64,000 bases of DNA, taken from Escherichia phage alia. Made by a program: the position numbers and the translations under genes. Under the pieces are notes generated by a model. The model was given only the letters and a program-made list of their open reading frames with translations. It ran no database searches and was not told the DNA's origin. Every line of letters starts with the position of its first letter. Within the stretch, counting starts at the first letter, position 1. Shown here piece after piece: positions 5,358-64,000 of the stretch. The stretch lies in sequence record NC_052655.1. The stretch is one strand, 5' to 3'.

Positions 5358-6488
5358 AAATGATAATCATTCTTATTTATAGCTGATTATTTATGCAATA
5401 AACTGCATAATGCAATAATGATAATCATTCTTAACTTAAGACCATCTAACTTATAAAATAATAAGTTATCTAACTAAATTAAAGCTAATTATCTTACTTT
5501 TATTTATAACATACTGTTACTATCTTATTGATAACCTTATATTAAACAACAATAATCAATGTAAATCATTACTAAGCTAACTATAATCTATCTAACCCTT
5601 AAAACTACAATTATAATCTATCAAATTGTTGCACAAAGTAACTATTAAATTGTTAGTAACATTGCTAAATAATTAATATCCTATCTATTTATGATCTAAT
5701 CTTTACCTCCCTATCTATTACCTAAATAACCATTTCATGTGGTAATCATTTCATACAATAACTATAACAAGAAATATAATTCGCAAGCGTATCATTAGCA
5801 GCCTATGCCGGACACATAGGCGGCTAATAATAACGCAACTACACACCCCACATAATAACCATCACCGATAGTTATTATTTGTGCTTATGTAGCTTGCAAC
5901 AATTGCAAGCGCAACAATATACATGGTATATTGTATCCCTTACATTGTTGCGGTGCGTTATTATTAGCTAATGTTTAGAACATTGGCTATAATATAAGCT
6001 AAGTAATAAGCTAGTCAATAATAAACATAATGAATAATGACATTAATGATCATAATGCGCCACCCTCCAGGGGGCGCTATGTGAACACAAAGAAATCATT
6101 CTTGTCAAGAAAAATATCACCCTATTGCGCAAAATTATTTATATCTGAATAGATGATTTTTCATACTATTGCCCCCTATAACATACCTCATTTGTTGAGC
6201 CTACTTTCTTAAAAGCGCAATAAAGTAGAATTATCTTGATTTTTAGTCGGTTTTATAGTACAGAAAGTATGCAAATGATAATCATTATCAGCTATCCTCC
6301 AGGGTGGCACTATTTCACGCCAGATCATTTCATTTGGCAAGGTGTATATAGATGTTTAGAAATGCCAAGCCATTGATTTACTTAGAATTTATCTGTTTTG
6401 TTGTGAGTAGTACCTTTCTTGCTTAGAAAATAATCAAAAGTCTTATAAGTCATTGAATGATAATGCAAATGATAATTATTCTCATTGA
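5358..6488. repeat. AT-rich non-coding region with iteron-like repeats (core AATGATAATCATT) and repeated CCTCCAGGG(G/T)G(C/G)CAC motif
   Basis: Copies of (A)AATGATAATCATT(C/A)T near 5358, 5415, 6269 and 6455 (degenerate copy near 5741); CCTCCAGGGGGCGCTAT at 6064 and CCTCCAGGGTGGCACTAT at 6297. No credible ORF. Confidence 0.55.
5803..5965. repeat. palindrome-rich segment (hairpin GCCTATG...CATAGGC; inverted TAATAATAACGCAAC / GCGTTATTATTAGC)
   Basis: Read directly from sequence: 7-bp inverted repeat at 5803-5826 and longer inverted repeat arms flanking 5830-5960 with the central TTGCAACAATTGCAA palindrome. Confidence 0.45.
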
Positions 6489-6931: not shown

Positions 6932-7249
6932 ATGAGAACCTTAGCTTTGTATATTGATCCTCACTCCATTCGAGAAATGCGAGATGTACAACAGGATTAT
7001 GAATTCTACCCAGAAATTTGTGAACGCTATGAAACTATTCTTAGTTCTGTAGAAGATCCAGATACTAGTGAAACAGGTGCTTCCCACTTACTGTGGATGT
7101 TGAATGAAATTCAGGATGGGTGTAATGATATGTCTGAAACCAAACGCCATCGTTGGCTAGGCTATATTCAGGGTGTTATGGTTATGAAAAACCTTATTAC
7201 AGTGAACGATGAACGTAACGCTACACGCCCCGTCTTTAATGGAGCATAA
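6932..7249 (+). CDS. hypothetical protein (105 aa)
   Basis: ORF track; GAGAGG RBS; first gene of a co-directional packed array. Confidence 0.55.
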   Translation: MRTLALYIDPHSIREMRDVQQDYEFYPEICERYETILSSVEDPDTSETGASHLLWMLNEIQDGCNDMSETKRHRWLGYIQGVMVMKNLITVNDERNATRPVFNGA

Positions 7250-7250
7250 C

Positions 7251-7466
7251 ATGAAAAGCATTCAGGTGTGTATTGAAAATAATTGTGGTTATCTGGGATT
7301 GACACACGTTGCTTTCCCTCTTATGTTAAATGCCGATATCGCTTACAGCGGAGTTGCTTATGTGTCATTCAAGACAATGAGCCAAGTACCTGGCTGGAAG
7401 TGGGAAGTAGTTGATGTTGTTGAAGGAGAAGACTATGTTTTCCTTCCACACGAATATACTGTTTAA
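7251..7466 (+). CDS. hypothetical protein (71 aa)
   Basis: ORF track 7209..7466; start moved to ATG 7251 immediately after the upstream stop (GGAG upstream). Confidence 0.5.
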   Translation: MKSIQVCIENNCGYLGLTHVAFPLMLNADIAYSGVAYVSFKTMSQVPGWKWEVVDVVEGEDYVFLPHEYTV

Positions 7467-7481
7467 AGAGAGGAAAAGCAG

Positions 7482-54788: not shown

Positions 54789-56522
54789 ATGAATATTTTT
54801 GCACCTTTTGCTACTGATTGGTATAAACCTGGTCACAAGCAGATGTACAACCAAAATACAAAACTTATTTTCTCTAATTTAACTCCTCGTAATGATAAAA
54901 ACTTTGCACACTATGCAGATCGTGAAGCACGTGGTGTAATTGTTTTAGGTATTCGTCGAGCAGTTACTGATGCTCTTGTAACTATGTGGGATAGCTTCTT
55001 TAAAATGTCTCGTAGTGCAGCAGTAAATAAGTTTTATCGTATGTCTAAAAATGCATTAGGTGCTTCTGCTCCTTCTGCTGAATGTTGGGGAGAATTGCAC
55101 GATTTAGGTTATCTTCCGCTGGAAGTTCGATCTCTGCCAGAAGGTGTTTTGTGTCCTATTGGTGTTCCTGTGTTTACTGTGCATAATACTTTAGAAAAAT
55201 TCTTTTGGTTAACTAACTATGTGGAAACACTATTGTCAGATGAAACTTGGAAGACAATGACTAATGCTACAGCAGCTTTTCAGTATAAGCGTATTGCTAT
55301 GGCATATGCGATGGCAACGTGTGATAATATTGATCACGTTAACTTCCAGTGTCATGATTTTAGCCTACGTGGTTTAAGTAATATCGAAGATGGTTATAAG
55401 AGTGGTATCGCTCATTTGGCATCTTTCACAGGAACAGATAACATTCTGGCTATTGAGACTGTGCATGATTATTATGGTATTGATTATGATCAGTTTGTTG
55501 CAGGTTCTATTCCGGCAACAGAACATTCAGTAGCAACGACTAACATTGGAGCTATTGTTGAAGATCTGAAGAAACATTTCCCACATCTTAAAGATGATGT
55601 TGATGGGCTTCGTTATGTAGCAGAGAAAGAGTTTCTTCGCCGCTATATCGAAGAAATTGTTCCAGAAGGTTTTTGTTCATATGTAGCAGATTCTTATGAC
55701 TACTGGGCTGTCTTGACTCGCATTCTGGTAGAATTGAAAGAATCCATTATGTCACGAAATGGTCGTCTTGTTATTCGTCCAGATTCAGGAGATCCGGTTA
55801 AAGTTGTTGCAGGATACAATGTTGAATCTTTTGATAACTATGAAGACCTTTTAAATAATGGTATTGCTACAGCCACTGAAGTAGTTCATTTGGCTGATGT
55901 TAATAAGTATTACAATGTTCTTCAGGATTGCAGTGTTGCTGATTGTATTGATGAAACTTATGAGATTCCTTATTGTGAAGCAGTAGGTTCTATTCAAATC
56001 CTTTGGGAAGTGTTTGGTGGTACTATCAACCGAAAAGGCTACAAGGTTCTTGATCAGCACATCGGTATGATTTATGGTGATTCTATTACTGTTGAACGAG
56101 AACACGAGATCTTACGCCGACTGAAGAAGAAAGGTTTTGCAGCTTCCAATATTGTATTTGGTGTTGGTAGTTATACTTATCAGTTCAATACACGAGATAC
56201 TTTTGGTTTTGCTGTTAAAGCAACAGGTAGTATCATCGGTGAACACGAAATTTTGGTAAGTAAGGAGCCTAAAACTGATCCTGGTAAACGTTCTGCAAAA
56301 GGTTTTATTAAGGTTGTTAAGGATACAAACGGTAAACTTTCTCTCGTGGATAATCTTTCTTTTAAAGATATTCAAGATGAAGACAATGAGTTAAAAGTTA
56401 TCTTCAGGGATGGTACGGTTATTACACCACAAGTAGAAGGACGTGATGAAACATTTACGGATATCCGCAACCGTGTTGATGTAGAGGTTCTTCGTACTAT
56501 GGGAACCATCCAGGTTGACTAA
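54789..56522 (+). CDS. nicotinamide phosphoribosyltransferase (NAMPT/NadV)-like protein
   Basis: 577 aa; N-terminal FATDWYKPGHKQMY parallels the NAMPT TDSYK-x-x-H motif; size and glycine-rich central segments are consistent with the type II phosphoribosyltransferase fold. Confidence 0.7.
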   Translation: MNIFAPFATDWYKPGHKQMYNQNTKLIFSNLTPRNDKNFAHYADREARGVIVLGIRRAVTDALVTMWDSFFKMSRSAAVNKFYRMSKNALGASAPSAECWGELHDLGYLPLEVRSLPEGVLCPIGVPVFTVHNTLEKFFWLTNYVETLLSDETWKTMTNATAAFQYKRIAMAYAMATCDNIDHVNFQCHDFSLRGLSNIEDGYKSGIAHLASFTGTDNILAIETVHDYYGIDYDQFVAGSIPATEHSVATTNIGAIVEDLKKHFPHLKDDVDGLRYVAEKEFLRRYIEEIVPEGFCSYVADSYDYWAVLTRILVELKESIMSRNGRLVIRPDSGDPVKVVAGYNVESFDNYEDLLNNGIATATEVVHLADVNKYYNVLQDCSVADCIDETYEIPYCEAVGSIQILWEVFGGTINRKGYKVLDQHIGMIYGDSITVEREHEILRRLKKKGFAASNIVFGVGSYTYQFNTRDTFGFAVKATGSIIGEHEILVSKEPKTDPGKRSAKGFIKVVKDTNGKLSLVDNLSFKDIQDEDNELKVIFRDGTVITPQVEGRDETFTDIRNRVDVEVLRTMGTIQVD

Positions 56523-56593
56523 ATAAAAACTTCGTGATAAGATTAAGGTAAGGAGAGCCTGCAACTGCCCTGGATGGGCTTCACGAAGGATTT

Positions 56594-56815
56594 ATGAAAC
56601 AACATAATTTTTATTTTCGTTGCCGAGCCTGTAACAGACACTTGACTAATCATTCCCGTAGAGACAGGAATGGTAATATTCAAGAGTCGGATCTATGCTC
56701 GATTTGTACAAGTTTGGCATTCGACGACAGTCCCGAAAGGGTTTATCAACATCAAAGTGTAACTGATCTTCTTCTAAATTACACAGCACCAGAGGAGGAA
56801 TTAGATTTCACATAA
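56594..56815 (+). CDS. small zinc-finger-like protein (73 aa)
   Basis: ORF track; CRACNRH...CSICTS Cys pairs. Confidence 0.45.
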   Translation: MKQHNFYFRCRACNRHLTNHSRRDRNGNIQESDLCSICTSLAFDDSPERVYQHQSVTDLLLNYTAPEEELDFT

Positions 56816-56828
56816 TTAAGGAAACAGT

Positions 56829-56936
56829 ATGTCTACAGAAATTATTTTTGGCTTATCTGTTTTTATTGCTATTGTATCTTTTGTATGCGGTTATACACTA
56901 GGTTACAGATCAAGAAAAAATATTGTAAAAAACTAG
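56829..56936 (+). CDS. small membrane peptide (35 aa)
   Basis: Not in ORF track. AAGGAAACAGT precedes ATG; translation MSTEIIFGLSVFIAIVSFVCGYTLGYRSRKNIVKN. Confidence 0.3.
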   Translation: MSTEIIFGLSVFIAIVSFVCGYTLGYRSRKNIVKN

Positions 56937-56966
56937 TTGACAACATAGCTAGTTATTTGCTAAGAT
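56937..56966 (+). promoter_or_regulatory. sigma70-like promoter (TTGACA, 18 nt spacer, TAAGAT)
   Basis: TTGACA 56937-56942; TAAGAT -10; AAAGGAG RBS then ATG 56997. Confidence 0.45.
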
Positions 56967-56996
56967 AAGCACAAGTTAAACAAAAAGGAGAAAACT

Positions 56997-57263
56997 ATGA
57001 CAGAAAAGACTTATGGTAAAGAATTGATTGAGAAGCACGTATTGATTGATAATAAAGGTGGAGCAATCTTTATTTTTGAACCTGAATCAGTTCTTACTGA
57101 AAACGAAAATGGTAGCGTTAGCCTTAAAACAGAAAGTTTGGTAATTGACTTCCTTGCTCTTCTGGATGAAATGGGGCTTCCTCACGAAGAAGAAGCAGCT
57201 ATTGCTTTGATTGCAGTTCTTCTGGAGAAACGCGAAGCTGGTGAAATGACCCAGTATGCTTAA
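56997..57263 (+). CDS. hypothetical acidic protein (88 aa)
   Basis: ORF track; AAGGAG RBS. Confidence 0.55.
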   Translation: MTEKTYGKELIEKHVLIDNKGGAIFIFEPESVLTENENGSVSLKTESLVIDFLALLDEMGLPHEEEAAIALIAVLLEKREAGEMTQYA

Positions 57264-57271
57264 TATTCAAG

Positions 57272-57347
57272 GTTCCATAGCTCACTGACGAGAGCGCACA
57301 CCTCATAAGTGTCGAGGGCAGGGATTGTAACCCTGGGGAACCACCAT
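57272..57347 (+). tRNA. tRNA-Met/Ile2 (anticodon CAT)
   Basis: Hand-folded cloverleaf: acceptor GGTTCCA/GGGAACC (one mismatch), anticodon loop CTCATAA, 3' CCA encoded. Confidence 0.55.
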
Positions 57348-57377
57348 TTAAAAGGAGGTGCTATGCATCTCCTATAT

Positions 57378-57463
57378 GCAAGTGTGGTGGAATTGGTGAT
57401 ACACATTGTGCTTAAAACGCAACGCTTAAATGCTTGAGGGTTCGAATCCCTCCACTTGCACCA
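57378..57463 (+). tRNA. tRNA-Leu (anticodon TAA)
   Basis: Acceptor GCAAGTG/CACTTGC, anticodon stem TTGTG/CGCAA with loop CTTAAAA, long variable arm, T-loop GGTTCGAATCC, CCA encoded. Confidence 0.7.
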
Positions 57464-57478
57464 ACACCTAAAAATATC

Positions 57479-57507
57479 TTGACATTTACTTAGTTTTTTG
57501 TTATAGT
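57479..57507 (+). promoter_or_regulatory. sigma70-like promoter inside the tRNA cluster
   Basis: TTGACA 57479-57484, 17-nt spacer, TATAGT. Confidence 0.5.
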
Positions 57508-57518
57508 CGTTATGAAAA

Positions 57519-57600
57519 CGGGGTGTATCTCACCTGACTTCTAATCAGGCGTTAACCGAGTAATTGGAGTATGCAGGTTCGAATCCTGTCACCCCGGCCA
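57519..57600 (+). tRNA. atypical tRNA-like gene (possible anticodon TCT)
   Basis: Perfect acceptor CGGGGTG/CACCCCG and T-arm GCAGG-TTCGAAT-CCTGT with CCA, but only one internal hairpin (CCTGA-CTTCTAA-TCAGG) and no recognisable D-arm; isotype uncertain. Confidence 0.4.
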
Positions 57601-57618
57601 AAAAGTTTTAAAAACTAC

Positions 57619-57647
57619 TTGACAAGCAAGATAGTTTTATGTTAGAT
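57619..57647 (+). promoter_or_regulatory. sigma70-like promoter inside the tRNA cluster
   Basis: TTGACA 57619-57624, 17-nt spacer, TTAGAT. Confidence 0.45.
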
Positions 57648-57663
57648 TTAAAGTATGATAACG

Positions 57664-57753
57664 GGAAGGTAGGGCGCAGCGGTGCGCAACCAGGTTTGAA
57701 CCCTGGCCCATTGTAGCGATACGGTGATGGTTCGACTCCATTATCTTCCTCCA
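57664..57753 (+). tRNA. tRNA-Ser (anticodon TGA)
   Basis: Acceptor GGAAGGT/ATCTTCC (G-U at pair 6), anticodon stem CCAGG/CCTGG with loop TTTGAAC, long variable arm, T-loop GGTTCGACTCC, CCA encoded. Confidence 0.65.
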
Positions 57754-57798
57754 AATTCAATTAGTAACAGATTCAGGTTGTTTTGAATAATTAAAAAT

Positions 57799-57884
57799 GG
57801 TAGATTGGTGAAATGGTAGCCACAACAGTTTGCTAAACTGTCGTCGGAAACGGCGTGTAGGTTCAAGTCCTACATCTACCGCCA
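57799..57884 (+). tRNA. tRNA-Ser (anticodon GCT)
   Basis: Acceptor GGTAGAT/ATCTACC, anticodon stem ACAGT/ACTGT with loop TTGCTAA, long variable arm, T-loop GGTTCAAGTCC, CCA encoded. Confidence 0.7.
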
Positions 57885-58054
57885 AGTTATCTTTAATGTA
57901 GCTTGTTGCTCTTAGTTGCTTGGTGTAACTTTTTGGAAGAATGGCTGCAACCATCTTACTTTAATAGAGTAAACTTTCGGCAGATGGCCCCCACCATCTT
58001 ACCGATACCTCATAGTCAGTGGTGCGAACACTGGCTATTTTAAAGATAATTTAT

Positions 58055-58129
58055 ACATCGTTAGCCAAGCGGTAAGGCACTTGACTTTTAATCAAGGGAG
58101 CGAAGGTTCGAATCCTTCACGATGTACCA
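58055..58129 (+). tRNA. tRNA-Lys (anticodon TTT)
   Basis: Acceptor ACATCGT/ACGATGT, anticodon stem CTTGA/TCAAG with loop CTTTTAA, T-loop GGTTCGAATCC, CCA encoded. Confidence 0.65.
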
Positions 58130-58134
58130 AACAC

Positions 58135-58221
58135 GTAGGTATCGCATAGCGGCAATTGCTGGAGACTGTAAATCTCCTGCCCTTCGGGGCTTCGTTGGTT
58201 CGAGTCCAACTACCTGCACCA
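58135..58221 (+). tRNA. tRNA-Tyr (anticodon GTA)
   Basis: Acceptor GTAGGTA/TACCTGC (one G-U), anticodon stem GGAGA/TCTCC with loop CTGTAAA, long variable arm, T-loop GGTTCGAGTCC, CCA encoded. Confidence 0.65.
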
Positions 58222-58228
58222 AATTAAA

Positions 58229-58313
58229 GATGGATTGGCCTAGTGGTTGGGCGACGGACTGTTAATCCGTGAACGAAAGTTCTAGCAAGGTTCAAATCCT
58301 TGATCCATCGCCA
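58229..58313 (+). tRNA. tRNA-Asn (anticodon GTT) with unusually long variable region
   Basis: Acceptor GATGGAT/ATCCATC, anticodon stem ACGGA/TCCGT with loop CTGTTAA, extra hairpin GAAC-GAAA-GTTC in the variable region, T-loop GGTTCAAATCC, CCA encoded. Confidence 0.55.
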
Positions 58314-58392
58314 AATAGTGCTTGTAGAGTTAATAGAAACCTCTAGAATTTTCTAGAATTGTAGGTATCAAACCCTACCAAGCAAATATTTT

Positions 58393-58467
58393 GCTCCTAT
58401 CGTATAACGGCTATTACGGTTGCCTTGTAAGCAACTTATCAGGGTTCGAGTCCTTGTGGGAGCACCA
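58393..58467 (+). tRNA. tRNA-Thr (anticodon TGT)
   Basis: Acceptor GCTCCTA/TGGGAGC (one G-U), anticodon stem GTTGC/GCAAC with loop CTTGTAA, T-loop GGTTCGAGTCC, CCA encoded. Confidence 0.7.
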
Positions 58468-58489
58468 ATTTAACTCTAAAGGAGTGTAT

Positions 58490-58813
58490 GTGACAGAAAA
58501 AGAGTTAGAGAAATATTTTAATATCAATGTTTTCGATGGTTTTGATGCTATTGAAGATGTTGAAAGATATTATGAAGTAGAGTTAGATAAGGATAACATT
58601 GTAATTCTTTCTGCCACTTATGATTGTGCATATTATGAAGGCGAATCTCACGTTTATTTCTATGATATGAAAACATCTTTGTTTTATGAAGTACACGCAT
58701 ATCATTGTTCTTGTTATGGCTTAGAAGGTCAGTGGGAACCTGAAGAAATAGGTGATTTGAGCTTTACGGTTGCATATCTAAACAGACGTGGCGCATCTAC
58801 TATTTTAAAATAA
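58490..58813 (+). CDS. hypothetical Cys-rich protein embedded in the tRNA cluster (107 aa, GTG start)
   Basis: ORF track 58391..58813 overlaps tRNA-Thr; start moved to GTG 58490, 5 nt after AAGGAG. C-terminal YHCSCYG cysteines. Confidence 0.5.
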   Translation: MTEKELEKYFNINVFDGFDAIEDVERYYEVELDKDNIVILSATYDCAYYEGESHVYFYDMKTSLFYEVHAYHCSCYGLEGQWEPEEIGDLSFTVAYLNRRGASTILK

Positions 58814-58827
58814 ATATTAAAAGCCTC

Positions 58828-58856
58828 TTGACAAAGGGGCTAATAATATGTTAGAG
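58828..58856 (+). promoter_or_regulatory. sigma70-like promoter inside the tRNA cluster
   Basis: TTGACA 58828-58833, 17-nt spacer, TTAGAG (TAATAT alternative). Confidence 0.45.
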
Positions 58857-58868
58857 TAATATTGTTAA

Positions 58869-58943
58869 GCGGGTATAGTGTTAATGGTAGCATATGAGGT
58901 TTCCACCCTCCAGGTGCAGGTTCAAGTCCTGTTACTCGCTCCA
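58869..58943 (+). tRNA. tRNA-Gly (anticodon TCC)
   Basis: Acceptor GCGGGTA/TACTCGC (one G-U), anticodon loop TTTCCAC, T-loop GGTTCAAGTCC, CCA encoded. Confidence 0.6.
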
Positions 58944-59042
58944 AGATTATTTAAATGGAATCGCTAGAGAAAATTTCTCTTTTCGCTCATGGTTTTCTCC
59001 TTCAAACTCTAGCGGTTCTTTTTAAGTGATTTTTAGTTTTAT

Positions 59043-59117
59043 TGGAGATTAGCCTAGTGGGAAGGCAACGGCCTTTGAAGTCGTGATGACTAGGTTCGAT
59101 TCCTAGATCTCCAGCCA
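59043..59117 (+). tRNA. tRNA-Gln (anticodon TTG)
   Basis: Acceptor TGGAGAT/ATCTCCA, anticodon stem ACGGC/GTCGT with loop CTTTGAA, T-loop GGTTCGATTCC, CCA encoded. Confidence 0.65.
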
Positions 59118-59124
59118 ATATTTA

Positions 59125-59200
59125 CAGTGCGTAGCGCAGTTGGTAGCGTGGGAGCTTTGGATGCTTCGGGTCGCAGGTTCGAGTCCTGCCGCACTGACCA
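59125..59200 (+). tRNA. tRNA-Pro (anticodon TGG)
   Basis: Acceptor CAGTGCG/CGCACTG, anticodon stem GGAGC/GCTTC with loop TTTGGAT, T-loop GGTTCGAGTCC, CCA encoded. Confidence 0.7.
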
Positions 59201-59205
59201 AATTT

Positions 59206-59280
59206 GCAGAGATAGCTGAGACGGATTAGTGCTACCCTGAAAAGGTAGAAAGGATGGATCGTTACCATCTCTCTGCACCA
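59206..59280 (+). tRNA. tRNA-Phe (anticodon GAA) with non-canonical T-loop
   Basis: Acceptor GCAGAGA/TCTCTGC, anticodon stem CTACC/GGTAG with loop CTGAAAA, T-arm GATGG-ATCGTTA-CCATC (not the usual TTCGAAT), CCA encoded. Confidence 0.55.
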
Positions 59281-59357
59281 AATAACACCATCCAAGGAGT
59301 AGACTTGGTTAACTGTCAATAGCACATTGAGGCTTCTTACAGTGGTGTACTTATTAT

Positions 59358-59442
59358 GGCTAAGTGGTGGAATGGTATACACGATACGCTTAGAACGTAT
59401 TGCCCCAAGGGATTGTGAGTTCGAGTCTCACCTTAGCTACCA
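59358..59442 (+). tRNA. tRNA-Leu (anticodon TAG)
   Basis: Acceptor GGCTAAG/CTTAGCT (G1-U72), anticodon stem ATACG/CGTAT with loop CTTAGAA, long variable arm, T-loop GAGTTCGAGTCTC, CCA encoded. Confidence 0.65.
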
Positions 59443-59457
59443 AATTATTACAGGTTT

Positions 59458-59536
59458 CGCGGGATAGAGGAGTCTGGTCGTCCTCGCCAGTTTCATATGC
59501 TGGAGATCATCGGTTCGAATCCGATTTCCGCCTCCA
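59458..59536 (+). tRNA. tRNA-Met/Ile (anticodon CAT), C1/C72 mismatch
   Basis: Anticodon stem CCAGT/GCTGG with loop TTCATAT, T-arm ATCGG-TTCGAAT-CCGAT, CCA encoded; first acceptor pair is C-C, and D-loop is long. Confidence 0.5.
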
Positions 59537-59613
59537 ATAAATACCTCCATTCTGGTGTAATGATTAAATTACATTGACACTTCAAGGAACTCATAGCCGG
59601 GTAGATTTAAAAG

Positions 59614-59680
59614 AGTATGGTACTCAATATGGCTCCAAACCATAGATCAGGGGGTTCGATTCCTCACCTTGCTGCCAATT
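59614..59680 (+). tRNA. degenerate or D-arm-less tRNA-like element (possible anticodon CCA, Trp)
   Basis: Canonical T-loop GGTTCGATTCC and 3' GCCA, internal hairpin TATGG-CTCCAAA-CCATA, but acceptor pairing is imperfect and no D-arm fits; only about 64 nt before CCA. Confidence 0.3.
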
Positions 59681-59682
59681 AT

Positions 59683-59758
59683 TGTGGTATCGTACAGATG
59701 GTTAGTACACTCGACCGATAATCGAGAAACAACGGTTCGACTCCGTTTACCACGACCA
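59683..59758 (+). tRNA. tRNA-Ile (anticodon GAT)
   Basis: Acceptor TGTGGTA/TACCACG (T1-G72), anticodon stem CTCGA/TCGAG with loop CCGATAA, T-loop GGTTCGACTCC, CCA encoded. Confidence 0.6.
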
Positions 59759-59869
59759 AACTCCGTGCCAGCGGTGTCTTCGAAGAACAAGCCTAGTTCC
59801 TTCTGAGATGGAGGGGTGCGACTCCTTAACGCACAACATACTACTACTAAATACTTATCAGGAGATATC

Positions 59870-60139
59870 ATGTATACTTTAAAAGTAATTCGCAAGTTTC
59901 CTCAAGAAGAGGAAGTAAGAATTTATAACACTGTACCATTCGTAGTAAATGAAGAAGAATTCTTTTATTGCTTAGAAGATGAAGTAATTATTCAATATCA
60001 TTGGGAAGGTTACGACAGACAAGATGGTGTTGTAGCTTCTGTGCTTGCTGGTGACAGAGTGTTATTCATTCACAAAACTGAATCAGCATATTTAATGAAT
60101 GATAAAGGACAAACTGTTAAAGTAATTAACAGACCATAA
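59870..60139 (+). CDS. hypothetical protein (89 aa)
   Basis: ORF track 59816..60139; start moved to ATG 59870 (CAGGAG upstream) to clear the tRNA region. Confidence 0.5.
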   Translation: MYTLKVIRKFPQEEEVRIYNTVPFVVNEEEFFYCLEDEVIIQYHWEGYDRQDGVVASVLAGDRVLFIHKTESAYLMNDKGQTVKVINRP

Positions 60140-60149
60140 AGAATTTTAT

Positions 60150-60176
60150 AAAAGCCTCCTTTTTGGAGGTTTTTTA
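60150..60176 (+). terminator. rho-independent terminator
   Basis: AAAGCCTCC-TTTTT-GGAGGTTTTTT. Confidence 0.6.
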
Positions 60177-60245
60177 TTATCTATAAAATAAAGATCTTTA
60201 CAAAACGTATAAAATATGTTATCCTTAAGTAAGGAGGTGCATATT

Positions 60246-60536
60246 ATGCCTAAATTGAAAAGAGGTCGAGGTAGACCTACAGCCGAAATGCAACAGATTT
60301 ATGCTATGGATGCTGCACAGGCGCAAGTAAAAGAAATTTTTGCTGGTCGTTATTTAGATGCTATGCGTTACATTGCAGATCTTGTTGTAGATGAAAAGGC
60401 TTCTGCTAATATTAAGTTGACTGCTTCTAAGATCATCAAAGAACAAGTAGAAGAATGGCTGGAAGAACATTATGAATCTATGGAAGAAGAAGATATTCTT
60501 CCAGAAAATTCTCCCCCTCAAAAAATCGTTATCTAA
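60246..60536 (+). CDS. hypothetical protein with AT-hook-like basic N-terminus (96 aa)
   Basis: ORF track 60216..60536; start moved to ATG 60246 (AAGGAGG 8 nt upstream). N-terminal PKLKRGRGRPT resembles an AT-hook. Confidence 0.5.
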   Translation: MPKLKRGRGRPTAEMQQIYAMDAAQAQVKEIFAGRYLDAMRYIADLVVDEKASANIKLTASKIIKEQVEEWLEEHYESMEEEDILPENSPPQKIVI

Positions 60537-60584
60537 TTCTCCTCTCTTGGGAACTTTGTTCCCCCTCTCCTTGTTAATTAACAC

Positions 60585-60612
60585 CCCTTTCCGAAAGGTT
60601 AGGGGGTTTTTT
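60585..60612 (+). terminator. rho-independent terminator candidate
   Basis: CCTTT-CCG-AAAGG hairpin then TTAGGGGGTTTTTTATTTT. Confidence 0.45.
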
Positions 60613-60674
60613 ATTTTATACCTATTGCTTTTATATATGTTTTTATGATATGATTAATACAGGAGGACTATAAA

Positions 60675-60848
60675 ATGAGAAACTATGTAGCTAAACACGA
60701 TTTTAATAGGGCTTCTTATCACAGAGATAAGAAGAACAGTTATTCGCGTAAATGGGATCTGGAGGAAGAGTTAGATTATGATTACAGAAGAACAATGGAA
60801 GGAGATTTTGGAGAATGCACAACCGATGGTAGTGAAGAAGATAGTTAA
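60675..60848 (+). CDS. hypothetical protein (57 aa)
   Basis: Not in ORF track. AGGAGGA 8 nt upstream of ATG 60675; translation MRNYVAKHDFNRASYHRDKKNSYSRKWDLEEELDYDYRRTMEGDFGECTTDGSEEDS. Confidence 0.4.
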   Translation: MRNYVAKHDFNRASYHRDKKNSYSRKWDLEEELDYDYRRTMEGDFGECTTDGSEEDS

Positions 60849-60883
60849 TAATTCACCAAATCTGCCTAAAGTAAAATTTAAAG

Positions 60884-61315
60884 ATGATGATACTGACTAT
60901 GTTAATAAACCTACTGAAGAATAAATGGGTTAGGTATTTTGTTCTTATTATAGCACTGTTTGGTGGTTTGTATGTTGGTTTAAACAAATTACACGATGAC
61001 GTGTATGCACAAGGCTACAACGCAGGTATTGCTAAACAAGAACAAATATTACAACAAAACCAAATTAAAGCAAAACAGCAATTCGATATCTTACAAGCAA
61101 AAGCAGATTCAGAAAGATCTAAATTGAATGAAAAAATTCATTCACTAACGAAAGAAAGAAATGATCTTCTTACACAACTGGATAAGAAGAGTAATAACAT
61201 AACACAAGAGAGAATAGATTATGCGAAAACATCTTCTGGCGCTATGTCTTGTTTTAGCCCTAATGATGACGGGTTGCGCATCATCAACAACAGCTTCCCA
61301 GCCTCTACTGATTGA
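60884..61315 (+). CDS. i-spanin-like (Rz-like) inner-membrane-anchored coiled-coil protein
   Basis: N-terminal TM segment (WVRYFVLIIALFGGLYVGL), then Q/K-rich coiled-coil region; the downstream lipoprotein ORF is embedded in its 3' end in another frame. Confidence 0.55.
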   Translation: MMILTMLINLLKNKWVRYFVLIIALFGGLYVGLNKLHDDVYAQGYNAGIAKQEQILQQNQIKAKQQFDILQAKADSERSKLNEKIHSLTKERNDLLTQLDKKSNNITQERIDYAKTSSGAMSCFSPNDDGLRIINNSFPASTD

Positions 61316-61550
61316 GCAGTGTAAAGCTGTAGCAACACAACAAATAAAAGCCCCTGATTCTGTCAGTATGGAAAAACCATCTACCCCTGTTTTATATACC
61401 CCTAATCAAATAAAGAAAGGAGTTACAAGATCAGAGGTAGTTGATAATCAAACTTTAAACAACGCTTTGTGGGAAAAAGATAGGATAAAACTTATCAGTT
61501 TACAAAACTATATTAAAACATTACAAAGTGAAGGAATAATTTCTAATTAG
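61221..61550 (+). CDS. o-spanin-like (Rz1-like) outer-membrane lipoprotein
   Basis: Lipobox LALMMTGC in MRKHLLALCLVLALMMTGCASS; starts 95 nt inside the i-spanin gene in a different frame. Confidence 0.6.
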   Translation: MRKHLLALCLVLALMMTGCASSTTASQPLLIEQCKAVATQQIKAPDSVSMEKPSTPVLYTPNQIKKGVTRSEVVDNQTLNNALWEKDRIKLISLQNYIKTLQSEGIISN

Positions 61551-61558
61551 GAGGAGAT

Positions 61559-63643
61559 GTGGCAAGGAAACCTGTCAAACAATCTTTTGAAAATGTAGAT
61601 ATTGAAGTTAAAGCCCAACCTGGCAAACAAACACTAGCTATGGATCTTATGCCTGAAGTAATGATTTATGGTGGTGCGGCAGGTTGTGTTTCAGCAGAAA
61701 CAGAATACCTAACAAGAGACGGTTGGAAACAAATAAGTGAATATGATGGTGAGGATATTTATCAATACAATCCAAGAAATAAACGTCTTGAATTAGTTAC
61801 ACCATCTTTTGTAGAATACGATGCTAAAGATAATCTGTATTGTATCACAAACGGAGTAGGTGTCTTCCAAGAATTAAGTATGGAACATCGCTTTGTTTTC
61901 TACAAGAAGAAAAAATCCAAAAAACATTTTGAAATTCTTGTTGGGGATCTTATTGCACTACAGCAAGCAGGACACCCATTACGAGGATATATTGAAAATC
62001 CTTTTGGTAAACGTGTTCCGTTTAACATTCAAGGTAAACCTAACACATACCTAAAAATTCATGAGGTAATGACAAGTGATGATAAGAAATATTGCTTTGA
62101 AACTCCAAGCAGTTATGTCGTGTTTAGACGTGGCGATCACATCTTCGTTACTGGGAATAGCGGCAAAAGCCGTCTGCTACTTCTAAAGGCACTTAAATAC
62201 GCATATAAAGATCCCCTGTTTGGTGGTATTCTTTTCCGTAAAAATACAACAGCTTTGCGTAAATCTGGTGGTTTGTTTACTGAAGCTAAAAAACTTTATC
62301 TACCATTAAAGCCTCACGTAAGAGAACAAGCTATGGAGATGGAGTTCAGAGCCACAAAAGGTGGTACACTTAAATTTGACCATCTTGAAAATGATAACGT
62401 AACTGCTGAAACTAACCATCAAGGTACACAGTATTCGATGGTGGGGTTTGACGAACTTACACATTTTACACAATATGAAATGCTATATCTGTTAGGGCGT
62501 ATGCGTTCCGAATCAGAAACGTCTTTTATGCTGTGTACTTGTAACCCTGATGCGGATAGTTGGGTGTTAAAGTGGGTACTTCCTTATTTGGATGAAGCTG
62601 GTTATCCACGAGAAGATATGTGTGGCAAACAGTTATACTTCCTTATTGTGCAAGATGAACCAGTATTTGCTGAAACAGCAGAAGAGTTGAAAGAAAAGTA
62701 TCCTGAAAACTGTTTTATGCAAAACCCAAACACAGGTGAAACAGTGGTTATTGAACCACAAACATTTGTGTTCATTGGTGGTACTATCTTTGATAACCCT
62801 GAACTAATAAGACTTAACCCTAAATACTTAGCTTCTTTGAAGGCTCAAACCGCCGTTAAGAGAGCACAGCTTTTAGATGGTTGTTGGTTTGCTCGTGCAC
62901 AAGAAGAGAGTTTCTTTAATAGAGAATGGTTACACGTTATCAAGTTTAAAGATTTACCAAACAATCTTAAATATATGCGAGCGTGGGATAAAGCAGTATC
63001 TGTTCCAACAGAATCTTATCGTTATCCTGACTACACAACATCTGTTAAAATGGCTAAAGACTCTGATGGAAATTATTACATTTTTGGTGATTATGATTAT
63101 GATGCTCACGATGAAGGTAGTAAAATTTTTGGTAGATTCAGAAGACTACCAGGTGATCGAGATAATTTAATTCTAAACCAATGTAAGATTGATGGAGATG
63201 AAGTTACAGTTGTATTGCCAAAAGATCCTTCTGGTGCTGGTTTGATTGAATATACAGAATCAGCTAAAAAACTAATTGCTGAAGGGTTTGTTGTTAAACC
63301 AGATGCTATGCCTGGTAACAAGAAAAAATTACAACGCTTTATGCCATTTAGTAGTGCTTGTCAAAATGGTTTTGTTTATATTGTAGAAGAATCTTTCCCT
63401 AACAAAGAAACTCTTGATCATTTCTATAAAGAGATGGAGTCATTTAATGGAGAAAGATCTACGGCAACATTAAAAGATGATATTCCAGATGCTGCTGCAT
63501 CTTGCTTTAATACTTTGTCAAAAGAACAGATGTTTAAAGCAGTAGCAATACCTTCTGCAACAAATGCATTAACAGGGTACGGTAAGATGGGTGGAAGATC
63601 AAGAAACTCTTTATCTTCTCCATATAGTATCAGAGGAAGATAA
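61559..63643 (+). CDS. terL: terminase large subunit (ATPase + nuclease), interrupted by a putative mini-intein
   Basis: Walker A split as YGGAAG | (158-aa insert) | SGKSRLLL; Walker B MVGFDELTHF; C-terminal acidic nuclease-like motifs. GGAGGAG RBS upstream. Confidence 0.75.
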   Translation: MARKPVKQSFENVDIEVKAQPGKQTLAMDLMPEVMIYGGAAGCVSAETEYLTRDGWKQISEYDGEDIYQYNPRNKRLELVTPSFVEYDAKDNLYCITNGVGVFQELSMEHRFVFYKKKKSKKHFEILVGDLIALQQAGHPLRGYIENPFGKRVPFNIQGKPNTYLKIHEVMTSDDKKYCFETPSSYVVFRRGDHIFVTGNSGKSRLLLLKALKYAYKDPLFGGILFRKNTTALRKSGGLFTEAKKLYLPLKPHVREQAMEMEFRATKGGTLKFDHLENDNVTAETNHQGTQYSMVGFDELTHFTQYEMLYLLGRMRSESETSFMLCTCNPDADSWVLKWVLPYLDEAGYPREDMCGKQLYFLIVQDEPVFAETAEELKEKYPENCFMQNPNTGETVVIEPQTFVFIGGTIFDNPELIRLNPKYLASLKAQTAVKRAQLLDGCWFARAQEESFFNREWLHVIKFKDLPNNLKYMRAWDKAVSVPTESYRYPDYTTSVKMAKDSDGNYYIFGDYDYDAHDEGSKIFGRFRRLPGDRDNLILNQCKIDGDEVTVVLPKDPSGAGLIEYTESAKKLIAEGFVVKPDAMPGNKKKLQRFMPFSSACQNGFVYIVEESFPNKETLDHFYKEMESFNGERSTATLKDDIPDAAASCFNTLSKEQMFKAVAIPSATNALTGYGKMGGRSRNSLSSPYSIRGR
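61685..62158 (+). other. putative mini-intein within the terminase P-loop
   Basis: Insert begins with Cys (CVSAETEYLTRDG, block-A-like), contains SMEH (block-B-like T/S-x-x-H), ends ...DHIFVTGN with Ser as the +1 residue; removing it restores GGAAGSGKS. No homing-endonuclease domain (158 aa). Confidence 0.5.
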
Positions 63644-63646
63644 ATC

Positions 63647-63708
63647 TTGACAAAACTATTTAAAATATGTTAAAGTAGCATTATATGTCTACCCCTTCAA
63701 TGGGGTAG
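63647..63708 (+). promoter_or_regulatory. promoter plus 5' stem-loop cassette
   Basis: TTGACA 63647-63652, 17-nt spacer, TTAAAG/TAAAGT; hairpin TCTACCCC-TTCAA-TGGGGTAGA at 63687-63708; then GGAGG RBS. Confidence 0.5.
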
Positions 63709-63740
63709 AGTCATTTGTCCAGCATTAGCGGAGGTTCTGA

Positions 63741-64000
63741 GTGTCTACAGGTAAGCGTAAGTACACTAAAAGATCGGATTACTGGAACAAAGGCTCAACT
63801 GAAAAAGCTGCACTGTCTCCAACACAAAGTGCAACTAAAGAGAAGAACTTGGTACTTTCACCAGAAATAGGTACTATTGGTCTTAATTCGATTAAAGCCT
63901 TTACGAACTTCATGCAACCGTATGAAACTCGCTTCCCAGAAAACATCCGAACATACAAAGAAATGGGTGAAGACCCTGACGTAGCTACTGCTCTTGATGC
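63741..64000 (+). CDS. hypothetical protein, 3'-truncated by window end (position after terminase suggests portal)
   Basis: GTG 63741 seven nt after GGAGG; open to the end of the window (86 codons). Functional guess is positional only. Confidence 0.4.
   Translation, partial: MSTGKRKYTKRSDYWNKGSTEKAALSPTQSATKEKNLVLSPEIGTIGLNSIKAFTNFMQPYETRFPENIRTYKEMGEDPDVATALD

Follow-up and report, generated by a model that had tools for sequence, protein, structure and literature searches.

Background

P-loops are a known hot spot for inteins (PMC4760082, PMC5050341), and the inteins of phages are often without the penultimate His (PMC5050341); in coliphages, no inteins had been reported up to a paper of 2024 (PMC11162368). 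The closest solved relative of the element described here is AceL NrdHF, a class 3 split intein whose structure is PDB entry 6ZGQ. We analyzed 64,000 nucleotides of Escherichia phage alia (NC_052655.1), a phi92-like coliphage (Justusliebigvirus, Stephanstirmvirinae); this whole stretch is referred to as the window. The object of the analysis is an insert at 61685-62158 in the gene of the terminase large subunit (terL), for which a first reading of the sequence, made without database searches, had proposed a mini-intein.

The AceL NrdHF intein has Ala1, Ser65, His68, Arg69, Met70 and Cys124 (F:4), and it ends in Thr144-Gly145-Asn146/Ser, where the slash marks a splice junction here and below. 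It is without His at F:13 and G:6 and nevertheless splices within minutes. Cys124 is its obligatory branch nucleophile, and block F is reshaped by a Pro-Gly kink. Arg69 (B:11) contacts the scissile carbonyl and partly replaces the missing His; in fact, splicing is slowed by R69A, and G145H abolishes activity by a clash with Arg69 (PMC7891396).

Results

The insert splits the P-loop of the terminase large subunit

The host gene is, as first proposed, the one for the terminase large subunit. Its open reading frame (ORF), which starts with GTG and is given with the stop codon counted in, encodes a precursor of 694 aa and 79.2 kDa. The product matches phrog_979 (terminase large subunit) over aa 27-691 (E 3.5e-221) and Pfam Terminase_6N at aa 201-458 (E 1e-16), the latter resuming directly after the insert; a Terminase_6C match at aa 554-646 is sub-threshold (E 5.6e-4, 20.4 bits against a cut-off of 22.6 bits). 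The ORF has the composition of a Terminase_6-type large subunit, namely an N-terminal Walker A/B ATPase and a C-terminal RNaseH-like nuclease, the nuclease being the part with the sub-threshold match. Over its full length, TerL shares 99.7% identity with the TerL regions of phages 92CQ, where it is annotated as terminase large subunit, and EC.P2; in comparison with phi92 gene_119 the extein is 100% and the insert 99.4% identical.

Reading of the codons placed the insert exactly where the sequence-only reading had put it, to the base. It is in frame, measures exactly 158 aa, lies between G42 and S201 of TerL and splits the Walker A motif as GGAAG/SGKS, two residues before the catalytic Lys. Across both junctions the ORF reads ...MIYGGAAG/CVSAETEYLTRDGW...HIFVTGN/SGKSRLLLL, with Cys43 as the first residue of the insert (TGT, 61685-61687), Asn200 as its last (AAT, 62156-62158) and Ser201 directly after it (AGC, from 62159). 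The segment CVSAETEYLTRDGW is block A of the insert, in which blocks B, F and G are also present, while His at F:13 of block F is absent.

TerL without the insert reads ...MIYGGAAGSGKSRLLLL and has the contiguous P-loop GGAAGSGKS; the tryptic junction peptide of spliced TerL would be QTLAMDLMPEVMIYGGAAGSGK. Distant homologues have this loop unbroken. In the alignment, TerLs of rV5-like, Mydovirus and FelixO1-like phages show an intact GGAAG[SA]GK[ST] at the position of the insert, as in isim (VIGGAAGSGKSFLL), KB57 (IIGGAAGSGKSYLL) and AYO145A (LYGGAAGAGKTAAL), and the insert-free TerL aligns to all three without a gap. The insert is therefore not an integral conserved domain of the enzyme. The coordinates of the features are collected in Table 1.

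Table 1. Features of the terL locus in the window
Feature	Coordinates	Strand	Remarks
Ribosome-binding site AGGAGG of terL	61549..61554	+	sequence read; the phi92 record labels the same motif as ribosome-binding site of gene_119
terL precursor ORF	61559..63643	+	phrog_979, Pfam Terminase_6N, near-identical annotated TerLs
N-extein, aa 1-42; ends with the first Walker A half GGAAG (61670-61684)	61559..61684	+	alignment to intein-less TerLs
Probable mini-intein, 158 aa, 18.5 kDa, without homing-endonuclease domain	61685..62158	+	
Block A (N1), C1-V-S-A-E-T6-E7-Y-L-T-R-D-G-W14	61685..61726	+	Cys1 is the candidate N-terminal nucleophile
Block B (N3), G59...L64-S65-M-E-H68-R69-F70-V-F	61859..61900	+	S65 is B:7, H68 B:10, R69 B:11, F70 B:12
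Block F (C2), K-K-Y136-C137-F138-E-T-P141-S142-S-Y-V-V-F-R148-R149-G	62084..62134	+	Cys137 is F:4, the class 3 branch-point position
Block G (C1), H-I-F-V-T156-G157-N158	62138..62158	+	T156 is G:5; Gly instead of the usual penultimate His at G:6; terminal Asn is G:7
C-extein, aa 201-694; starts with Ser+1 and the second Walker A half S-G-K-S (62159-62170)	62159..63640	+	alignment to intein-less TerLs; Pfam; after SGKS, the remainder of the ATPase domain and the nuclease domain

Fold of the insert and extent of its family

The family of the insert was delineated by an exhaustive phmmer search against 1.84 billion representative proteins at E<=1e-3; a word-index protein search had returned 5 and then 18 mostly fragmentary proteins. 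At this threshold 687 proteins match, so that the family comprises at least 687 clusters at 50% identity. Most matches consist of two stretches, about residues 1-80 and 115-158, with about 150 residues between them, the layout of an intein in which an endonuclease interrupts the splicing domain. Pfam LAGLIDADG_3 matches the middle part of longer members (E 1.3e-6, 29 bits).

Alignment to intein profiles, suggested at the outset as a check, gave a divided result: the curated libraries do not recognize the insert as a single sequence, whereas a profile of 12 mini-inteins of the family matches 6ZGQ with E 3.7e-12. An AlphaFold2 model built from the alignment of the 12 mini-inteins has the HINT fold, with a predicted local distance difference test score (pLDDT) of 94.3 and a predicted template modelling score (pTM) of 0.87. 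When the model was submitted to Foldseek, 6ZGQ ranked first (template modelling score 0.70) and 50 of the 50 matches listed were Hint domains, comprising inteins, bacterial intein-like (BIL) domains and hedgehog autoprocessing domains, those after 6ZGQ being mostly class 1 inteins. In the profile alignment, C137 corresponds to the C124A position of 6ZGQ and P141 to P128. The proposal of a mini-intein is borne out by this predicted fold and by the fact that the closest solved relative is an experimentally validated intein. Together with the 687 matching proteins and the profile match to 6ZGQ, the predicted fold puts the resemblance to inteins far outside what chance would give.

Conservation was counted in 157 inteins of the family, and the motif was also checked in the 12 mini-inteins. 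Blocks A and B, which the sequence-only reading had recognized as intein-like, are conserved across the family: position 1 is Cys in 155 of 157, position 6 Thr in 153, positions 7 and 14 Glu and Trp in 156 each, position 65 (B:7) Ser or Thr in 151, position 68 (B:10) His in 156 and position 69 (B:11) Arg in 103. In the C-terminal part, Tyr136, Cys137 (F:4) and Arg148 are each found in 156 of 157, and Thr or Ser at position 156 (G:5), Gly157 (G:6), Asn158 (G:7) and a Ser, Cys or Thr at +1 in all 157. The insert has the features expected of an intein, that is, insertion in a conserved motif that is uninterrupted in homologues, a HINT fold, a block B [TS]-x-x-H, a terminal Asn and Ser at +1; S65, H68, N158 and S201 are 96-100% conserved in the family. 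The typical but non-obligatory penultimate His (G:6) is replaced by Gly157. The Gly-Asn junction, flagged earlier as an uncommon variant, is real and unusual among inteins generally, but it is the rule in its own family.

The residue at -1 is Gly in 130 of the 157 and positions +1 to +4 are mostly [SCT]GK[ST], from which it follows that the family specializes in P-loops. By Pfam, the host proteins include RecD-like AAA_30, ResIII and SNF2 helicases; further hosts, read from flanking motifs only, appear to be DnaB-like ATPases, RtcB, ribonucleotide reductases and MetK. Sites outside P-loops also occur (P0010, P0016, P0055, P0120; P0022, P0025, P0056; P0031, P0041, P0044). Again judged from flanking motifs only, they comprise two copies per protein in a ribonucleotide-reductase-like host (...S/CGAGVGTT and ...C/CGFGGR[ML]L), a MetK-like site (HGGGAF/SGKD) and an RtcB-like site (VGVDIG/CGM). 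At one NrdF-like site in the ribonucleotide reductase beta subunit, RDE/x...TGN/[SC][IV]HGYYIG, P0133 has Cys1 and P0152 has Ala1, as in AceL NrdHF. P0133 and P0152 represent natural variation at the residue separating class 1 from class 3; the Ala1 of P0152 and of AceL NrdHF, which is rare in the family, implies that the family fold can dispense with Cys1. The insert itself belongs to the AceL NrdHF-like 'TGN' family by profile and structural similarity, by S65/H68/R69, by Cys at F:4 and by T-G-N.

Proposed splicing and catalytic class

The fold, homology, insertion site, conservation and purifying selection of the insert are established directly. Their best explanation is that the insert is a functional cis-splicing mini-intein that restores the P-loop of TerL, which from sequence and model we regard as highly probable. 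TerL would be made as the 79.2-kDa precursor, inactive because its Walker A motif is physically split; the HINT domain (18.5 kDa) would then excise and join Gly42 to Ser201, yielding a 60.8-kDa TerL with contiguous GGAAGSGKS. The packaging ATPase activity would depend on splicing.

At the C-terminal junction a branched ester on Ser201 would be resolved by cyclization of Asn158, with no His at G:6 or F:13. By analogy with AceL NrdHF, Arg69 (B:11) may assist this cyclization instead of His by contacting the scissile carbonyl; since that intein shares these residues, the published work on it explains how the penultimate His can be missing.

At the N-terminal junction two thiols would be on offer, Cys1 and Cys137. 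The conserved Cys at F:4 was overlooked by the first reading, and it renders the catalytic class ambiguous. Since Cys1 and Cys137 are each about 99% conserved, we tentatively favor a relay, in which the N-extein would pass from Cys1 to Cys137 and then to Ser201, over both pure class 1 and pure class 3.

In a pure class 1 pathway, Cys1 would form a linear thioester attacked directly by Ser201, and Cys137 would position or activate residues like Asp F:4 and never carry the N-extein. We rather doubt this possibility. It would suit the near-invariant Cys1 (155/157), a candidate for the N-terminal Cys, Ser or Thr that forms the linear (thio)ester in class 1, as well as the class 1 inteins that prevail among the structural neighbors after 6ZGQ, and the authors of the AceL NrdHF study liken their own intein to class 1 at B:12 (PMC7891396). 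However, in AceL NrdHF the Cys homologous to Cys137 is indispensable as branch nucleophile, the alternative Asp is never seen at F:4 in the family, and the class 1 accessory residues Asp F:4, His F:13 and His G:6 are all missing here, with Cys137, no His and Gly157 in their respective places.

A pure class 3 route seems unlikely. Cys137 would attack the Gly42-Cys1 amide, and the branched thioester in block F would be passed to Ser201 with Cys1 unneeded. In its favor, C137, T156 and Ser+1 agree with what is typical of class 3, and members at the NrdF site have either Ala1 or Cys1. Of the WCT triplet (Trp at B:12, Cys at F:4, Thr at G:5), two of the three residues are present (F70/C137/T156); the validated AceL NrdHF has M/C/T. 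Tori and Perler reportedly found in 2011 that WCT inteins with Ser1 or Cys1 splice by the class 3 route. The closest characterized relative follows this route with Ala1 (PMC7891396), a Ser1 or Cys1 start had already been noted in 2010 for three WCT inteins (PMC2807308), and the literature calls the N-terminal nucleophile 'not required', which does not necessarily mean absent (PMC5222942). Against it stands Cys1, since class 3 is operationally defined by having no nucleophile at position 1 (PMC7891396, PMC2807308).

Several points weigh against a functional intein working by the favored relay. The canonical His is absent at both G:6 and F:13. The insert alone, searched against Pfam, NCBIfam and, by phmmer, the PDB, gives no match even at E<=10. 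The division between relay, class 1 and class 3 is drawn wholly from conservation logic. Finally, the AceL NrdHF fold splices with Ala1, and by analogy Cys1 may hence be dispensable.

The missing penultimate His and the silence of the curated profiles, together with the presence of the insert in all of about 131 Stephanstirmvirinae-type records, would also agree with a degenerate intein, that is, a HINT domain that stays in mature TerL or only cleaves like a BIL domain. We consider this very improbable: with a retained domain the phosphate-binding loop would stay interrupted two residues ahead of the catalytic Lys, no splicing residue has been lost, the +1 nucleophile included, and purifying selection acts on all of them, and the same signature supports rapid splicing in AceL NrdHF. 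As a rule, BIL domains are located in variable, non-conserved regions. Membership among them was considered and rejected, the Ser at +1 being conserved here and the site being Walker A; in BIL domains the +1 nucleophile is absent by definition (PMC4031507).

On the side of the functional two-cysteine intein, the family could possibly, though we would not call it probable, be a large, uncurated, P-loop-specialized lineage with two obligate cysteines, which would either hand on a thioester in a relay or form a redox-sensitive pair, Cys1-Cys137, gating terminase maturation. If true, this lineage would stand as a natural link between classes 1 and 3, and its rare Ala1 members (AceL NrdHF, P0152) would have lost the first step secondarily. 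This would argue that at least one class 3 mechanism arose by divergence and not by convergence.

Age, selection and inheritance

The insert is found in 131 of 131 close records of Stephanstirmvirinae type, 54 of them at >=95% identity and 77, phAPEC8-like, at 80-90%. In comparison with the Phapecoctavirus phages ZCKP1 and KP13-26, the ratio of non-synonymous to synonymous substitution rates (dN/dS) is 0.060-0.067 for the intein, at a dS of about 1.4, and 0.040-0.062 for the extein, at a dS of about 1.9-2.3. Amino-acid identity to the same two phages is equal in both parts (87-88% against 87-89%), and GC content is 34.8% in the intein against 36.8% in the extein. The equal identity, similar GC content and matching dN/dS indicate that the intein is older than the split between phi92-like and phAPEC8-like phages and that it was vertically inherited. 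The substitution pattern points to the same constraint on the intein as on the essential TerL enzyme, as would be expected were splicing failure lethal.

These data also bear on removal of the interruption as an intron at the RNA level, or on an assembly artefact, both of which we regard as extremely improbable. A metagenomic relative has two group I introns in terL, but the insert is in frame, without stop codons and with a dN/dS of 0.06, it encodes a confidently folded HINT domain, and it is identical in more than 50 phages that were sequenced independently. An Rfam scan of positions 56000-64000 of the window found tRNAs only, with no intron match in terL. An RNA intron was rejected on this absence of an Rfam match in terL and on the in-frame coding insert under purifying selection.

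Returning to the protein intein, it is no longer mobile. It has neither an endonuclease domain nor a hidden ORF: a search for an out-of-frame or antisense endonuclease within the insert found only overlapping ORFs of 42 and 53 aa. A six-frame scan of the window with hidden Markov models of the family found the terL copy and no other family intein, and the other two large ORFs of the window, encoding ribonucleotide reductase alpha and NAPRTase, are uninterrupted. The LAGLIDADG homing endonuclease carried by most family members would have been lost from the TerL intein. Most probably, this intein is a selfish element that has become trapped and remains functional because the phage would not survive a loss of splicing.

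Related terminases and neighboring genes

The Vibrio phages vB_CoeS_P1 (L006 656-3477) and PWH3a-P1 (L010 2414-4384) have TerLs of about 46% identity, in which the G/SGKS site is likewise occupied by an intein of this family, though a strongly diverged one. Directly upstream of terL in vB_CoeS_P1, and abutting it, is an ORF with the annotation 'endonuclease VII', whose product could be a stand-alone homing endonuclease that partners an endonuclease-less intein.

Two inteins are present in P0149, an 855-aa metagenomic TerL homologue that is 52% identical in the ATPase domain. The first (residues 38-362, 325 aa) belongs to this family, occupies exactly the P-loop position of the alia insert and presumably contains an endonuclease; the second, from 461 to roughly 798, comes right after Walker B (FDELTHY/C...SGN/TEYQF). 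Another metagenomic terL, on a 67-kb Logan contig (L012 5001-8095, SRR30563961), holds a mini-intein at the same site (P0157, 59% identical) and two Rfam group I introns at 5861-6111 (86.6 bits) and 7173-7469 (53.4 bits). As a consequence of these two introns, gene callers report it as 3-4 ORFs; in this lineage terL is a hot spot for selfish elements.

The insert region is 99.4% identical in MG065639.1 and MG065689.1, recorded as 'Campylobacter phage A150/A110a' (host C. jejuni, 146,366 bp). This identity to an E. coli phi92-like phage suggests a mislabelled host or a contaminating coliphage.

Directly 5' of terL, two overlapping ORFs (60884-61315 and 61221-61550) correspond to the i-spanin/o-spanin pair that is found in the annotations of Bas61, Bas62 and 92CQ. 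The second of them starts MRKHLLALCLVLALMMTGC, which resembles a lipoprotein signal. By Rfam, fourteen tRNA genes are clustered at 57378-59755, a short way upstream of the genes for lysis and packaging, and related records also have 14 tRNAs there.

Discussion

The intein has gone unrecorded in annotation. It is not mentioned in the phi92/phAPEC8-group records examined, where the gene is named 'terminase large subunit' or 'hypothetical protein'. The S5 table of the BASEL collection, which counts inteins, gives 0 for Bas61 EmilieFrey, whose TerL has the identical insert (PMC8594841 supplement). The same table gives one intein and one intron for Bas62 JohannJBalmer, a near-identical phi92-like phage, and 0 and 0 for Bas61. 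As both share the TerL insert, Bas62 must hold an additional intein and an intron elsewhere in its genome.

Widely used coliphages (phi92, phAPEC8, BASEL Bas61 and Bas62) would carry a terminase intein that annotation has missed and that Pfam and NCBIfam do not detect, as they also fail to detect hundreds of related inteins. Packaging that would await protein splicing, in a phage of E. coli K-12, offers a genetically tractable system for asking if the inteins of phages are nothing but selfish elements or serve as conditional switches. The signature of Cys1, F:4 Cys and T-G-N takes an intermediate place between class 1 and AceL NrdHF, a validated but atypical class 3 intein; compact relatives with the Gly -1/Ser +1 junction could become ligation tools and could clarify the origin of class 3 splicing.

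Comparison with known systems

The insert and AceL NrdHF share S65/H68/R69 with the same numbering in the N-terminal half, the Cys at F:4 and T-G-N/S. At a pairwise identity of about 20%, they differ at the N-terminus (Cys1 here, Ala1 in 6ZGQ) and at B:12 (Phe here, Met there). The insert is contiguous, with 158 aa, whereas AceL NrdHF has 146 aa and is naturally split around a GIY-YIG gene; the host is the TerL P-loop in one case and the ribonucleotide reductase beta subunit NrdHF in the other.

With the mycobacteriophage inteins TerL1-a and TerL1-b (PMC5050341) the insert has in common its place in the Walker A P-loop of the ATPase domain of a phage large terminase. Those hosts belong, however, to the terminase_1 family, and the sites are not the same, TerL1-a lying between Lys and Thr and TerL1-b one residue off, against G/SGK here. 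They are mostly LAGLIDADG-containing inteins of actinobacteriophages, and no combination of F:4 Cys with Cys1 has been reported for them. The intein of the Bethlehem gp51 recombination directionality factor, a class 1 phage intein, also has a Gly-Asn C-terminus, and its splicing is impaired by G316H (PMC5050341), in parallel to G145H in AceL NrdHF; its host protein is unrelated and it has an endonuclease.

The canonical class 3 WCT inteins (MP-Be DnaB, Msm DnaB-1, MchDnaB-1) are alike in Cys F:4, Thr G:5 and Ser/Thr +1; they prefer the P-loops of helicases and terminases, and a phage origin has been proposed for them (PMC2807308). Twenty-two inteins are known in large terminases of the Terminase_6 family, the family found here, in Firmicutes, Fusobacteria and Proteobacteria, but they come from prophages in bacterial genomes (PMC4760082). 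Inteins in terminase P-loops and phage inteins with a penultimate Gly are thus already known, the catalytic signature has one relative that is characterized both biochemically and structurally, and the TerL insert is a further, previously unannotated example. Less ordinary are the co-conservation of Cys1 with the class 3 Cys, the size of a family invisible to profiles, and the setting in a tractable phage of E. coli K-12.

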